From the IMG/VR virus record IMGVR_UViG_645058813_000003, positions 7,834-71,833 of that record: a stretch of 64,000 nt of DNA; one strand, 5' to 3'. Made by a program: the position numbers and the translations under genes. Positions 2,062 through 30,525 of this stretch are shown in pieces. Source of the stretch: a virus. Within the stretch, counting starts at the first letter, position 1, and every line of letters starts with the position of its first letter. The notes under the pieces were generated by a model. That model was not told the DNA's origin. It saw only the letters and a list, made by a program, of their open reading frames with translations, and searched no databases.

Positions 2062-5000
2062 ATGAATAAACAAGAAACAAATATTATAAAAGCAGAGGGA
2101 AAAGATTTAATAGGAGGAAAATTAGTTATTAAAGCTAATAACTATAAAAAATATAAAGCTACTTTTGATTATAGTTTAGTTGCAGAAGAATTAGCAGAAG
2201 ATGGAGCAGAATTTTATGAAGTAAATGGAAAACAATTTACAAATGATATTATAAATGTAAGTTTTAAATTTGGTATTGATATTGAAAATGATGGAATTAA
2301 ACAAATTAAAATGAATAATGATAACTTAAAGAAAAGCGAATTAAAATATGTTGAAAAAAATGATAAAGAAATAAAAAATATAATAAATGAAAAATATGAT
2401 ATTAAGAATAAAATTGAAATCGAAGAAATAACTAAAAAAATTAATTTAAGTAAAAAAGCTGTTAAAAATTACATAGCAAATAAAAATGAAATTGAGATTA
2501 GAATTTCTAAAAACACTATTGATAAAGAAATTAAGAAATTAAATAGAGAATTATTAAAAGATGAAAAAGTTGATATTAAAATAAATGCAATAAAAAATTA
2601 TATTAAAAACAAGAAAGAGACAGAATCGAAAAATAATAAATTTAAAATCATAAAAAGAAACAAAGAAATGCAAGAACATTTATTATTAGAATATTTTAAG
2701 TCAAGAAATACTATAAGAGAAGATTTATACAAAAATGGATTTTATATTACTTTTGCTGAAACAGGAGAAGTGGTTCATTATGTTAGATTTTTAAGAAGTT
2801 CAGGAAGCAGTAGAGTTGGTAGATGCTTATTTATTAAAGAAGAATTACACAATAAAATAATGAATTGGTGCTACATGGGATTAAATATAGATGAAATGAC
2901 AGAAACAGATTTAGCATCATTAGAAGCATATTTATCATTACCTGCAAGTTCTACAATAGCTACTATAAAAGGAATAAAAGCAGAAAACATATTGTTTATT
3001 AAAGAAGTTAAAGATACATTTACTGAAAATGCTATGTGTACTGAAATTAAAAATAATGATAATGGGGATTGCTTATATACTTCTGAAAAAGAAATGGAAA
3101 TAACAAATTCAATTCATGATGGACAAGCCTTGATGGATACATCGCTGTTTAAGGATAATGGATATGCTGATAAAGGTATGTTATTACTTAGAAATAGATT
3201 TTTCAAAGGTGCTTGTTTTCACACTAATATCCAAAAATGGTTTAATGATAATAATATAACAGAAGTAAGTCAACTAAAAGGATATACTAGAGCAAAAGAT
3301 ATCACGGATGTTAAATTAATATGCAATGCTGAAACTTGTGTAAAGTTCGTTAAATTTGGTACTAAAGAAGAATGGTTAGATAGATTAGAAGATAGATGGG
3401 GAATAGTAAAATATGAAAAATCAACACATCACTTTAAAGGCAATTTAGTTAGTACGCATTATCAATTATTAAATACTTTAAATTTTAATAGAGATGAAAT
3501 GGTAGAACTTTTAAAACCAACAATGGAATATTTTAATTTAATGTTGAATGATAGTAGAGTAATGCGAAACTTTATTGGAGCAAATGTGGATGATATAGAA
3601 GATTTAAAAGATAGCAATTTAATGATTAGTGCTTTAGTTGGAATAAGCGATGAATACTCTAAAACAAAACTATATACTAATTTTAGAGACGAAAAAAGAA
3701 AATCATTTTTAAAGCAACTACAAAAAGGTCATGTGCTAATTAAAGGTACATACTCAGTTCTGTTTGGAAATCCTATCGAGATGCTTAAAGAATCAATAGG
3801 AACTTATACAGGAGCAAGTATATTTAAAAAAGGTGAAGTTGATTGCAAATATTTTGAAAAAGACATTGAATTGCTTGGGTGTAGATCACCTCATGTAACT
3901 ATGGGAAATTTAGCACTAATGAAAAATGTACATATAAAAGCAATTGATACATATTTTAATCTTAGTGAAAATATAATTTGTGTTAATTCTATAGGAGAAA
4001 ATACACTAGAAAGACTTTCATCAGCCGATTTTGATAGTGACCAGCTACTTTTAACAGATTCTAAACTTGCATTATCTAAGTTAAAGTTACATTACAGTGA
4101 ATTTTTAGTACCAACTTCAAATGTACAAGCTGAAAAGGTAAAGAGATTAAATAACGCAACACAAAAATCTGAATTGGATGTTAAAACAAGCGTAAATAAA
4201 ATTGGTGAAATAATTAATTTATCACAACTTCTAAACACAATGATTTGGGATAAATATAATAGAACTGGCGAATTAGATATGGCTATATATACGGATGTAT
4301 GCCAACTAGATGTAATGTCTTGTATAGAAATAGATAGTGCTAAGAAAGAATTTACAATTAATAATGTTAAAGAATTAGATAAATTAAGAAAGAAATATAA
4401 AATAGATAGTTATGAAGAAGGTAAAACACAAATAAAGCCATATTTTATGCAGTTTACAGGAAAATTAAAAGAAGAAGAAAAAGAAGAACAATTCAAAAAA
4501 ATAGAATTTAAAAAGTATAATACAAGTATGGATTATTTGGAAGACATTATAGAGCATGAATTTAAAAAGATAAGAGCAAAAAAAATAAAATCTGAAGATG
4601 TAAAAACTATACAAGAAATAATAATTAATAATACAAAAGATTATAAAGTTAAAGATGCAAATAGACATCAAATTCCAGAAATAATTAAGATAATTGAAAA
4701 AGCTGATAAAGAAGTTAAAAGCCTTTATGCTAAAAAACCAAGCAAAAATTTGAGTAATGAAGAAATAAAAGAATTTAATATTGCTAGAGGTAAAAAAGTA
4801 ATGGAAATAAATAATAATATGTATGCTGAGATTAGCAAGTTGAAAATTAAAATTGAAACAATTAAAAAATTATTTATTGAAACTGAGAGCAAATACAGTC
4901 ATTTATCTCGTAAAATATTTACAGTAATGTTTGTTACTAATAAAGACAAGGTATTAGACTTATTAAAAAATACTAAAGATAATAATTTAACTAAATATGT

Positions 5001-5070
5001 AATGACAAATGGAAAATCAGATATAACAATTTTAGGTCTAGGATATAAAGAAGTGAAATGTGGATTATAA
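2062..5070 (+). CDS. YonO-like single-subunit RNA polymerase (cellular RdRP-like double-psi beta-barrel family)
   Basis: HYVRFLRSSGSSRVG, HDGQ, LLRNRFFKG, CRSPH and catalytic-type ADFDSD motif; 1002 aa; located upstream of virion genes. Confidence 0.8.
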   Translation: MNKQETNIIKAEGKDLIGGKLVIKANNYKKYKATFDYSLVAEELAEDGAEFYEVNGKQFTNDIINVSFKFGIDIENDGIKQIKMNNDNLKKSELKYVEKNDKEIKNIINEKYDIKNKIEIEEITKKINLSKKAVKNYIANKNEIEIRISKNTIDKEIKKLNRELLKDEKVDIKINAIKNYIKNKKETESKNNKFKIIKRNKEMQEHLLLEYFKSRNTIREDLYKNGFYITFAETGEVVHYVRFLRSSGSSRVGRCLFIKEELHNKIMNWCYMGLNIDEMTETDLASLEAYLSLPASSTIATIKGIKAENILFIKEVKDTFTENAMCTEIKNNDNGDCLYTSEKEMEITNSIHDGQALMDTSLFKDNGYADKGMLLLRNRFFKGACFHTNIQKWFNDNNITEVSQLKGYTRAKDITDVKLICNAETCVKFVKFGTKEEWLDRLEDRWGIVKYEKSTHHFKGNLVSTHYQLLNTLNFNRDEMVELLKPTMEYFNLMLNDSRVMRNFIGANVDDIEDLKDSNLMISALVGISDEYSKTKLYTNFRDEKRKSFLKQLQKGHVLIKGTYSVLFGNPIEMLKESIGTYTGASIFKKGEVDCKYFEKDIELLGCRSPHVTMGNLALMKNVHIKAIDTYFNLSENIICVNSIGENTLERLSSADFDSDQLLLTDSKLALSKLKLHYSEFLVPTSNVQAEKVKRLNNATQKSELDVKTSVNKIGEIINLSQLLNTMIWDKYNRTGELDMAIYTDVCQLDVMSCIEIDSAKKEFTINNVKELDKLRKKYKIDSYEEGKTQIKPYFMQFTGKLKEEEKEEQFKKIEFKKYNTSMDYLEDIIEHEFKKIRAKKIKSEDVKTIQEIIINNTKDYKVKDANRHQIPEIIKIIEKADKEVKSLYAKKPSKNLSNEEIKEFNIARGKKVMEINNNMYAEISKLKIKIETIKKLFIETESKYSHLSRKIFTVMFVTNKDKVLDLLKNTKDNNLTKYVMTNGKSDITILGLGYKEVKCGL

Positions 5071-5530
5071 TTTACACACCTTCTTTAATGAAAATGGCTC
5101 AAACCGTTGGTATGACTAGCTTTGTAAGTTCACAATAACCGTCTAATAGGGGATAGAGAGAATAAAACATTTCTAACTCTAGGAAGACAGAAAGATTAAT
5201 ATTAATGAGTATGTCCAGTTAAGGTGGGGTGTAAGAGCCTTGCCTTAACGGTATACTAAAAATGATTATAATAATTCAATTTATTATAATATAATTTAAC
5301 AATCAATGCAAATATTTTTATTGGAGTAGATAACTACTCTACGTTAATTATTTATTTTTTTATAAATGATTAATTCCTTTTTTCTTTATTTAGAGTAGGT
5401 AGGTTTAATTCTCCTGCCTATTCCAATAAGGATATTTGCAATCCTACCGAAGATGGTATGGTTAAAATTTTGAACGGTAATAGTGTCAGAAATTCGGACA
5501 CTAAAATAAATAATTAAAGAAAAAGGATGG
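5071..5530 (+). ncRNA. Candidate structured non-coding RNA or leader (serial hairpins plus a four-way junction at 5307-5440)
   Basis: 460-nt ORF-free gap with many G-U-containing stems; see finding. Confidence 0.5.
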
Positions 5531-6328
5531 ATGAGATTTATGAAAACAATGATGAATGAAGAAATGGTAGCAAATTTAAAGAAGGATTTCGATTCTGAAA
5601 CTTTAGTACAATTAAATGGATTAATTGAAGATTATAAAGATTTAGCTGAAGAATATAATGAAAAAATAGAATTTGAATATGAAATGCAAGTTTTTGATGA
5701 TTCTTTAAATAGAGCAGTAAAAGAAAGAATGGATGAATTAATAAATGCAGAAAAGCAAGTTAAGGAATTATTATCCGATACTGTTTCAAAAGATAACGAA
5801 TTAGATATAGAATTTGAAAATGAAGCTAGAGAATTAGTTGAATCTTTAATACCCGTTTTTAACGGAAAGTCTATAAGTGCAGATGTTTTAGATTGTAGTA
5901 ATAGATTAGTAGATCAAATTTTAGAATTAAAAAGTTTCAAAACTTCTATAGATATAATAGAAACTGCTAAAAGATGTTTTCTAAATCATAAAATTGATTT
6001 AGATTGTAAGATGGATATAATATTTAAACAATATTTAGCGATTTGGGAAGTATTAAATATGATTAGAGAGCAGGATTGGGACGATATAGACGATATGGAA
6101 GTTCTAGTAGAAGAAGATATATTAGTTAAAGATTATTTATTAGATTATATTAATACAAATGTAGCAGAAGAACTAGAAACTGATGCAGACTTAGTAGAGT
6201 TTTTATGTTCGTGTGGATTAGATAATAATATATATGTAAGAACTTTAGAAGATAAAAATAGCTGTGTATGTTTAGTTCTATTCGATGATAATGAAAATAG
6301 ATTAACAGATTGTTATTATCTTAATTAA
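5531..6328 (+). CDS. Highly acidic hypothetical protein
   Basis: 265-aa ORF; about 65 D/E residues by manual count. Confidence 0.75.
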   Translation: MRFMKTMMNEEMVANLKKDFDSETLVQLNGLIEDYKDLAEEYNEKIEFEYEMQVFDDSLNRAVKERMDELINAEKQVKELLSDTVSKDNELDIEFENEARELVESLIPVFNGKSISADVLDCSNRLVDQILELKSFKTSIDIIETAKRCFLNHKIDLDCKMDIIFKQYLAIWEVLNMIREQDWDDIDDMEVLVEEDILVKDYLLDYINTNVAEELETDADLVEFLCSCGLDNNIYVRTLEDKNSCVCLVLFDDNENRLTDCYYLN

Positions 6329-7577: not shown

Positions 7578-7941
7578 AGGTAAGAAATGTACATATAACG
7601 GAATAGATTTTGATTCTATTCCCGAAAAGGATTATTACATAAAATTATTAGAAGATAAGGGTGTATCTAATTTACAGATACATCCTAAATTTATATTATT
7701 AGAAGGTTTTAGAAATAATGAAGGTAAAGCAATTAGATCGGTTACGTTTAAACCAGACTTTATGTTTAATGACCATCTTGGACAGAAATATATTGTAGAT
7801 GTTAAACCAAATAATAAGAGATTAATTGATCCTGATTTTATGATTAGGTGGAAGTTATTGCAAAGTATGTATAGAGAGCAAGATATTAAGTTTAGACTTA
7901 TTGCTTGGGATAAAAAGATTAAAGAATTTATAGAATTATAG
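7567..7941 (+). CDS. DUF1064-like PD-(D/E)XK nuclease-fold protein
   Basis: NGIDFDSIPE...LQIHPKFIL...FKPDF...IVDVK pattern. Confidence 0.7.
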   Translation: MHYRGKKCTYNGIDFDSIPEKDYYIKLLEDKGVSNLQIHPKFILLEGFRNNEGKAIRSVTFKPDFMFNDHLGQKYIVDVKPNNKRLIDPDFMIRWKLLQSMYREQDIKFRLIAWDKKIKEFIEL

Positions 7942-7953
7942 GAGAGTGTATTA

Positions 7954-8121
7954 ATGGATAAAATATTAGCGATTATTAATATAATAATGTTTATTACTTT
8001 GTTTTGTGGAGGAATATATGCTAAAAAAAGTGGAGAATTGCATTGTAATATGAATGGGATTATAGCTTTAGTTGTTGTATTTGTATTACCGATTTGTTTA
8101 GGGATTAGTGTATTAATATAA
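7954..8121 (+). CDS. Small membrane protein (55 aa, not in ORF track)
   Basis: GGAG RBS, ATG 7954, two hydrophobic segments, TAA 8119-8121. Confidence 0.5.
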   Translation: MDKILAIINIIMFITLFCGGIYAKKSGELHCNMNGIIALVVVFVLPICLGISVLI

Positions 8122-8675: not shown

Positions 8676-8739
8676 AAATAGTAGGGGTAGTATTACATTT
8701 ATACTACTCTTTTTATTTTGTGAAAAATAAGGATGTGAT

Positions 8740-8949: not shown

Positions 8950-9422
8950 TGGGGAAGGTATCTTGTCCAGTATGTGGTAGGATTCACGATAGGAACTACA
9001 TATGTGAAGCTAAGAAGAAAGCTAAGTTAGATAAGAGTAAAAGAGATAGAAGCAGATTAGATAATAAAGTATTTAGTTCTAGCAAGTGGAAGAAATTAAG
9101 AAATAGAATAGTAGAAGATTATAATAATATAGATTTGTTTAGTTATTATATATTTGGTAAGGTAGAAGTAGCAGAAGTAGTGCATCATATTGTAGAGTTT
9201 ATGCAGGACGAGGAGCTAGCGTTTGACGAGGATAACCTGATACCTTTATCGAATTATACACATTTAAGTATTGTTCACAAGTTGTACAAAACTAAATGTA
9301 AAAATGAAATACAAAATATGTTAAGAGATATGATTAAAGATTATTGGAATGATAATAAAGAATTTGGAAGTTATAAAGAAAGATATAATAAGATTGTAAA
9401 AGAATTTGGAATGAATATATAG
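8949..9422 (+). CDS. Packaging-associated HNH endonuclease
   Basis: CPVCGRIH N-terminus; VHHIVE...DEDNLIPL...H; position just before terS. Confidence 0.8.
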   Translation: MGKVSCPVCGRIHDRNYICEAKKKAKLDKSKRDRSRLDNKVFSSSKWKKLRNRIVEDYNNIDLFSYYIFGKVEVAEVVHHIVEFMQDEELAFDEDNLIPLSNYTHLSIVHKLYKTKCKNEIQNMLRDMIKDYWNDNKEFGSYKERYNKIVKEFGMNI

Positions 9423-9571
9423 TAAGTTAGTGTTGATTAAATAATAATTGTTATTGATTAGATAGTAGATAATTTATATTCATTTATTGTATATGTAAAG
9501 ATATTAAAAATTATAAAGAATGTGATTATAGATAGTAATTTGTTACTGTCTTTTTACTTTGCAACTAAATA

Positions 9572-24968: not shown

Positions 24969-25544
24969 ATGAGAGGAAATAAAATGGGTAAGTTAAAATT
25001 ATATAAAATAAGAGAAGATTATATAGACTTTTTACGGAAATATGATAGTAAAGTTTTATATAATAAAAATGAAAAAAGAGTGTATATTGGTGTAATATTC
25101 CCTATAAACGATACCAAATATTTTATTCCATTATCCTCACCAAAGAAAAAACATGAAACAATGAAAAACACAATAGATTTTCTGAAGATAAACAATGGAG
25201 AAGATGGAGCGATTAATTTTAATAATATGATACCAATAATTGATGATGTTGTGGTTGAATTTGATATTTTAGACGAAAAAAGAATAAGATATAAAAATAT
25301 ATTATTTAACCAAGTAAAGTTTATTAAAAGAGAATCGAAAAACATATTGGAAAATGCCATAAAATTATATGAAAAAGTAACAAAATATAACAGTTACATA
25401 AGTAAAAGATGTGTAAATTTTAAATTATTGGAAATGGTAGCAAATAACTATCAAACATATCAAGAAGTTGCAATGACAGTAGATGAAGATATAGAGCCTA
25501 AAGGAATTAAAGAGAATGTAGAAGTTGAGAAGACTAAGATTTAA
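24969..25544 (+). CDS. toxN: Type III TA endoribonuclease toxin, ToxN/AbiQ family (likely start 24984)
   Basis: LYKIREDYIDFLRKYDSKV...YIGV...YFIPLSSPK...GAINFNNMIP. Confidence 0.9.
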   Translation: MRGNKMGKLKLYKIREDYIDFLRKYDSKVLYNKNEKRVYIGVIFPINDTKYFIPLSSPKKKHETMKNTIDFLKINNGEDGAINFNNMIPIIDDVVVEFDILDEKRIRYKNILFNQVKFIKRESKNILENAIKLYEKVTKYNSYISKRCVNFKLLEMVANNYQTYQEVAMTVDEDIEPKGIKENVEVEKTKI

Positions 25545-25548
25545 GCTT

Positions 25549-25574
25549 AGTCTTTTTTATTTGCGTAAAAATAA
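25549..25574 (+). repeat. 26-bp exact repeat, copy 1 (copy 2 at 30500-30525)
   Basis: AGTCTTTTTTATTTGCGTAAAAATAA at both sites; both followed by TGAAAGGAAAGTGATA RBS. Confidence 0.85.
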
Positions 25575-30387: not shown

Positions 30388-30499
30388 ATATGTAAATGGA
30401 TTTACATATAGTGATTAAGAACTTGGTACAAGCTGTATTGAGTTCTTTTTTGTATGTAATTATAAATAAATAATATGATTAAAGATTTGTGATTGTACA

Positions 30500-30525
30500 A
30501 GTCTTTTTTATTTGCGTAAAAATAA
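30500..30525 (+). repeat. 26-bp exact repeat, copy 2
   Basis: Identical to 25549-25574; precedes endolysin. Confidence 0.85.

Follow-up and report, generated by a model that had tools for sequence, protein, structure and literature searches.

The YonO-type enzymes are minimal relatives of cellular RNA polymerases. In SPbeta, a single start site, the YonO-dependent P(YonO) at genome position 2225998, has been reported for the late operon; it precedes "an unannotated non-coding RNA" and lies upstream of yonK, and the sequence of the promoter itself was never defined (Forrest et al. 2017, PMC5467207). The primers used for primer extension place this start 285–477 nt into a 1.68-kb gene-free gap behind yonO–yonN. 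Promoter recognition was left open in 2017, and no later literature on YonO promoters was found. The SPbeta yonN–yonK gap (L015:9154-10834, − strand) contains a match to the Rfam DUF3800-VIII RNA (47.5 bits, 9410-9475), located near yonK.

The locus described here lies in a stretch of 64,000 nucleotides, further called the window, which is a piece of an 86-kb provirus record. It resembles SPbeta in that a YonO-type gene is followed by a long gene-free stretch ahead of the late genes, although in SPbeta this stretch is 1.68 kb in size and situated behind an extra gene, yonN. In the window, the gap separates a 1002-aa open reading frame (ORF; 2062-5070, + strand) from the next ORF (5531 or 5540 to 6328, + strand). 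The initial annotation had regarded the gap behind the polymerase gene as non-coding, and indeed 5071-5539 holds no plausible ORF, the only small ORFs being of 23–27 aa and showing no conservation. The region is best interpreted as a promoter of the phage's YonO-type RNA polymerase together with a structured 5′ leader, roughly 390 nt in length, that belongs to the late operon, a reading to which the sequence comparisons presented below give, in our estimate, a probability of about 0.55. The leader reading is favoured by the placement of the gap directly after the YonO homologue and directly before the co-directional terminase, portal, capsid, and tail genes, i.e., the placement known from the SPbeta model.

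The 1002-aa protein matches phrog_8308 (1e-82) and carries the catalytic sequence DFDSD, and it has no match among the Pfam families. A profile of 32 relatives aligned with SPbeta YonO by hhalign with a probability of 97.6% (E 3.8e-12, 421 columns), the DFDSD of the family falling on the DNDGD of YonO; moreover, one relative, P0089, passes the Pfam RdRP family PF05183. Taken together, the phrog_8308 match, the DFDSD sequence, the profile alignment, and the RdRP-passing relative identify the predicted product of this ORF as a distant YonO-type single-chain (two-barrel) RNA polymerase. The family comprises more than 1400 proteins, and relatives of this polymerase are encoded in assemblies of Clostridium botulinum, C. 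butyricum, and other Clostridium. For comparison, the loci encoding the closest proteins were used together with 240 more distant ones, taken from genomes, viral contigs, and metagenomes; in viral contigs, single-protein queries gave nothing and the loci were found with alignment-based queries. The gap following the polymerase gene is 380–520 nt long in the close group and 1.3 kb in the C. butyricum type, and in the distant clades it is mostly of only 50–250 nt. In the C. butyricum-type relatives (L009:6007-7377 and L265:2425-3786) the 1.3-kb gap comprises the same 5′ block and an extra ca. 900 nt. A blastn search of 50,697 phage records with the gap of the window gave no match. In one relative (L013:3001-5934) the polymerase is called as two genes of 738 and 200 aa, suggestive of a frameshift or a split, with intact leader elements downstream.

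Every gene between 5531 and about 28 kb is carried by the + strand. This block includes the genes for the small and large terminase, portal, protease, major capsid, tape measure, and tail proteins, which places the gap at the head of the late operon. The first gene of the block (5531-6328) has no family match. The ORF list gives its start as ATG 5531; the ATG at 5540 is better spaced from the Shine-Dalgarno-like sequence AAGGATGG, with which the start codon forms the segment 5523-5542. Four intrinsic terminators (a hairpin with a T run) are found within the co-directional late operon, at 8690-8725, 9530-9560, 25535-25560, and 30490-30515, so late transcription must read through them; the tails of the last two are near-identical. 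A terminator directly 3′ of the polymerase gene was considered as well, and the hairpin found there (5046-5087) has a z of only −1.6 and lacks a T run. In three relatives, genes resembling GIY-YIG homing endonucleases are interspersed with the first late genes (L003:8127-8465; L011:6766-7350 and 7647-8003; L012:7949-8308), and the window has no such gene at this place.

Conservation of the gap begins abruptly at 5136, 66 nt 3′ of the polymerase stop codon, with a promoter-like motif of 20–25 nt (5136-5160, + strand). The initial annotation contained no such motif at 5136-5155. In the clade the motif has the form T-R-A-C-M-S-Y-N2-3-TATA-GGRGAGAG, ending here with TAATA-GGGGA; it reads TAACCGTYT-AATA-GGGGA in the sub-group of the window and TGACACC-N2-3-TATA-GGAGAGAG in the sub-group with 44–52% polymerase identity. 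All 19 clade members examined (19/19) retain it, and the bases just upstream are unrelated. A weight matrix built for the motif gives 31.8 bits at 5136, against 13.4 bits for the next-best site on either strand of the 86-kb phage and a maximum of 16.7 bits in shuffled genomes; no second copy was thus detected with the matrix on either strand of this phage, and a 146-kb relative likewise has a single copy. The expectation that a promoter would occur in several copies per genome, at the heads of operons, was not borne out in these two phages, but one copy per phage is in line with the report of just one late start site in SPbeta.

Polymerase-specific phage promoters share a common initiation core, and their recognition half is clade-specific. 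The same division is found here, with a core common across polymerase clades and a clade-specific upstream half, and for this reason the motif is read as a putative promoter of the phage polymerase. Regardless of context, the core ATAGGRR is found in 35 of 117 non-redundant loci no more than 220 nt downstream of the polymerase stop codon; the numbers for comparison are 11 for the opposite strand, 3 for the region upstream of the gene, and 8 for the 230 nt that follow (Fisher p 1e-4 and 5e-9 for the enrichment behind the gene). Among 121 non-redundant loci, 19 have the form GTTAC-ATAGGAGAGGG at 4–100 nt downstream of the polymerase gene, and the variants ATAGGAT, CTATGGAG, and ATAAGGA, joined to clade-specific upstream halves, add 43 more loci, among which some sites may be ribosome-binding sites. 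The strict core is present in only about 30% of the polymerase-family loci. One metagenome contig (L244) has GTTAC-ATAGGAGAGG motifs in tandem, 33 and 143 nt after the polymerase stop codon. A promoter of the sigma-70 type was also considered at the position of the motif: a promoter scan has no match at 5136-5155, and in the distant sub-group, whose motif includes TTGACA, no −10 element lies at a constant distance from this hexamer, so that this reading fails.

The whole gap folds on the + strand with an energy of −128 kcal/mol, as against −84 ± 5 kcal/mol for dinucleotide shuffles (z −8.6), and on the − strand with a z of only −3.5. An uncharacterised structured phage RNA or late leader had been proposed for the gap on first inspection, and this description is supported: the region heads the packaging, head, and tail operon, its folding energy is far below that of dinucleotide-shuffled controls, as had been anticipated, and it lies outside any Rfam family. 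Neither the whole window nor 7 related loci had a match reaching the gathering threshold of any Rfam 15 family, the best sub-threshold match having an E of 0.82, and a tRNA/tmRNA search found none. All the helices listed in the initial annotation were located in the sequence, that given as 5218-5250 in fact spanning 5208-5257, and both this helix and the one closing the multi-branch domain are maintained in related prophages by compensatory changes, so the anticipated covariation was seen. The G-U pairs, which had been taken to favour selection at the RNA level, are complemented by these compensatory changes and by the strand asymmetry, and the RNA of the + strand is under selection. What had to be turned round was the ranking of the parts. 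The junction had been presented as the core with the 5′ hairpins as its flanks, but it is 5136-5262 that is kept down to 44–52% polymerase identity and forms the peak of conservation, unlike the junction, which is retained only in the closest group. Blastn and MAFFT comparisons accordingly delimit the part common beyond the nearest relatives to 5135-5296, the junction being excluded.

The first hairpin, H2 (5149-5180, + strand), would be flush with the inferred 5′ end of the transcript. It consists here of a helix at 5154-5175 with the outer pairs 5149-5152/5177-5180. The minimum free energy (MFE) folds predicted for the window and for every relative have a hairpin at nucleotides 1–4 after TATA, which in nearly all relatives starts with nucleotide 1 or 2 and has a stem of different sequence. 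RNA located 3′ of the motif folds with a mean of −11.5 kcal/mol, compared with −8.2 kcal/mol for control GG sites (p 2e-4), and pairing from nucleotide 1 or 2 is found after 65% of the motifs and 45% of the control GG sites, a modest excess (p 0.03). H2 is followed by H3 (5195-5206, + strand), a perfect 12-nt palindrome or mini-hairpin whose position is kept, with other perfect palindromes found at the same place in the relatives; its support as a paired RNA element is weak (70% of cells), and it may serve as an operator in the DNA or as a self-complementary loop in the RNA.

The most thoroughly supported element is H4 (5208-5257, + strand), a long hairpin with the conserved base GAGTATGTCCAG ... 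GGTATAC and the conserved 8-nt loop U-GUAARA-G, which in the window is U-GUAAGA-G (5230-5237), the 12-bp stem between them being wholly different from locus to locus. The segment 5209-5257 has a z of −5.1 on the + strand and −2.0 on the − strand. In a MAFFT alignment of 12 sequences, 95% of the cells are paired and 11 of 21 pairs have changed on both sides; none of 500 shuffles matched this, and in slid controls about 40% of the cells were paired. A covariance model built from this alignment, R1, found the element in five of five clade members outside its training set, at the same place behind the polymerase gene and with 67–88 bits. When these five were added, the values rose to 96% of cells and 12 of 21 pairs changed on both sides (shuffles matching, 0/500; slid controls, 35–48% paired), it being understood that the enlarged alignment was fitted to R1. 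There is exactly one copy of R1 in the window. The model had no match in 160 loci of more distant polymerase clades nor in SPbeta (L015), and in 150 Clostridiaceae genomes, with 30 candidates scored per genome, it detected only the already known copy. The exact H4 DNA pattern gave 8 matches in viral contigs, of which only 2, each downstream of a polymerase gene, are genuine. Several positions of H4 are often occupied by G-U pairs, which indicates that the constraint acts on the RNA of the + strand. The possibility of H4 being an intrinsic terminator, with a G+C-rich stem immediately ahead of a T run, was also examined: the terminator scan finds none at H4, and the stem runs into CTAAAAAT in the window. 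In the distant sub-group (L024, L106-108, and L266-269) a T run lies within about 10 nt after H4. The last hairpin of this part, H5 (5265-5290, + strand), is AU-rich and is predicted by folding; its 5′ arm holds TATAAT, a part of the sigma-70-like sequence TTAACG-16-TATAAT (5245-5272), which matches at 10 of 12 positions in the promoter scan. Such matches are no commoner than in shuffled sequences (8 vs. 7.8).

Further downstream lies the multi-branch domain (5307-5440, + strand; z −9.5, compared with −6.0 on the − strand), common to the window and five relatives (L003, L007, L010, L013, and L011). Its closing helix of 17 bp (5307-5323/5424-5440) can be extended to 23 bp, and in these six sequences 93% of the cells are paired and 6 of 17 pairs have changed on both sides. 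Of the four-way junction originally drawn here, with interior hairpins at 5324-5339, 5344-5373, and 5393-5423, the closing helix stands, while the interior is tied with a three-way alternative. Four interior segments are involved, 5324-5329, 5334-5341, 5391-5403, and 5413-5424. Pairing of the first with the second and of the third with the fourth gives the four-way junction, and pairing of the first with the fourth and of the second with the third (5324-5329/5418-5423 and 5334-5341/5391-5398) gives a three-way junction, which is the MFE structure. Each fold has 93% of its cells paired because the four segments change together, and the interior could possibly act as a switch or undergo co-transcriptional rearrangement. 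The AU hairpin 5344-5373 is limited to the three closest relatives. Two small hairpins follow the domain. H6 (5443-5461, + strand), with a GAAGAU loop, has three different stems and a similar loop in the window, L003/L007, and L013, while H7 (5482-5502, + strand), formed by AGTGTC/GACACT in the window and L003, is deleted in L007 and is thus not conserved. The pyrimidine linker of the junction (5374-5391) and the purine-rich Shine-Dalgarno region of the first late gene (5512-5527) have a complementarity of about 80%, which makes the two a possible anti-Shine-Dalgarno pair, bearing in mind that any polypyrimidine and polypurine sequences look alike in this respect.

Under the promoter and leader interpretation, the YonO-type polymerase of the phage would recognise the single-copy motif at 5136-5155 and start at the G run, presumably at G 5149. 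The + strand RNA from 5149 to the start codon (391 nt), which is a chain of conserved folds, would then be the leader of the late transcript. Its function would in the first place be the protection of the long late transcript from 5′-end-dependent decay by the 5′-terminal hairpin; ranked second, the polymerase or a phage factor could dock on the invariant-loop hairpin and the junction, setting the level or timing of late expression or aiding passage through the terminators near 8.7, 9.5, 25.5, and 30.5 kb. This interpretation is weakened by the dissimilarity of the SPbeta start region (no similarity to the yonN–yonK gap was found, with an nhmmer E of 0.1 and no R1 match in L015), by the restriction of the strict core to some 30% of the loci, by the sigma-70-like element inside the leader, by the T run after H4 in the distant sub-group, and by the modest size of the flush-hairpin excess. 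A wider version of it, in which the ATA-GGRGAG element is the general promoter of YonO-family polymerases, the hairpin at the first bases aids initiation, and the leader is an RNA module that loads onto the polymerase for reading through the terminators of the 25-kb operon, is rather improbable. The nascent hairpin would there peel the RNA off the template, as the lid, rudder, and zipper do in cellular polymerases; YonO lacks these three elements.

Several other explanations compete with a promoter followed by one continuous leader. The T run after H4 in the distant sub-group, together with the invariance of the H4 loop and of that sub-group's H2 loop, suggestive of a specific partner, would be accounted for if the 5′ part were a stand-alone RNA of ca. 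110 nt, extending from the motif to the end of H4 and acting in trans or as an attenuator, and the rest a separate leader. Such an arrangement seems unlikely, given that H4 has no T run after it in the window and in the close relatives, that the terminator scan gives nothing at this place, and that the junction further downstream is conserved too. It would be equally surprising, although the 10/12 match of TTAACG-16-TATAAT and the retention of TATAAT in most close relatives speak for it, if 5136-5262 were the 3′ tail of the polymerase mRNA, with H4 as its stabiliser or terminator, and the host polymerase started the late genes from 5245-5272, leaving the junction as the sole leader. Promoter-like matches are as frequent in shuffled sequences, the distance to the −35 element is not constant (3 nt are missing in L011), and TATAAT is the arm of a hairpin in an AT-rich genome; moreover, the single-copy motif with a family-wide core behind the polymerase gene would have no explanation.

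Function at the DNA level, as a packaging site, a replication origin, a cruciform, or a protein-binding array, is far less plausible. It draws on the palindrome 5195-5206, which is perfect to its centre, is swapped for other perfect palindromes, and would suit a dimeric DNA-binding site, and on the location of the gap a few kilobases before the terminase genes. Against it, G-U pairs are frequent at the covarying positions, where the other strand would have A-C mismatches, and the + strand folds much better than the − strand. As to the idea put forward in the initial annotation, by analogy with the RdRP relatives, of an RNA serving as a cofactor or template of the adjacent polymerase, adjacency and the family kinship with RNA-dependent RNA polymerases are all that it has in its favour. 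The sequence gives no call for a template role, in the distant clades the gap is only 50–250 nt long, and YonO has been demonstrated to transcribe as a DNA-dependent RNA polymerase (PMC5467207), which makes this the least credible of the explanations.

A short single-copy motif with a family-wide core behind the polymerase gene provides a concrete promoter candidate for the YonO-type enzymes, and the leader is a new RNA structure supported by covariation and absent from Rfam. Together with the non-coding RNA of SPbeta, it suggests that late operons driven by YonO regularly have long structured leaders. Should it be only a stabilising leader, it would still be a useful annotation, of modest interest.

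Structured RNAs at the head of long operons are known from processive antitermination, as in put of HK022, nut of lambda, and EAR of the Bacillus eps operons, all of which act on the host multi-subunit polymerase. The leader described here is similar to them in being a structured RNA at the head of a long terminator-containing operon; it differs in that it has no sequence or Rfam match and in that put, nut, and EAR make use of the host multi-subunit enzyme; antitermination by the leader RNA, as suggested in the initial annotation, is hypothetical. The promoters of the N4 virion RNA polymerase are short DNA hairpins upstream of the start. They have in common with this locus a control region of a phage polymerase with hairpins, but here the hairpins are located downstream and are RNA-like, with G-U pairs. 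A likeness in layout is found in the class III promoters of the T7 group (phi10 of T7, and those of SP6 and T3), which end with TATA, direct a start at G-purine, and precede the late genes with a leader opening with a 5′ stem-loop. Both are short polymerase-specific promoters, the one here a candidate, with a TATA end, a G-purine start, and a hairpin at the first transcribed bases. The two-barrel enzyme is, however, unrelated to T7 RNA polymerase, and the motif, which is shorter, is present in a single copy per genome; the likeness to the promoters of the T7 group is probably convergent.
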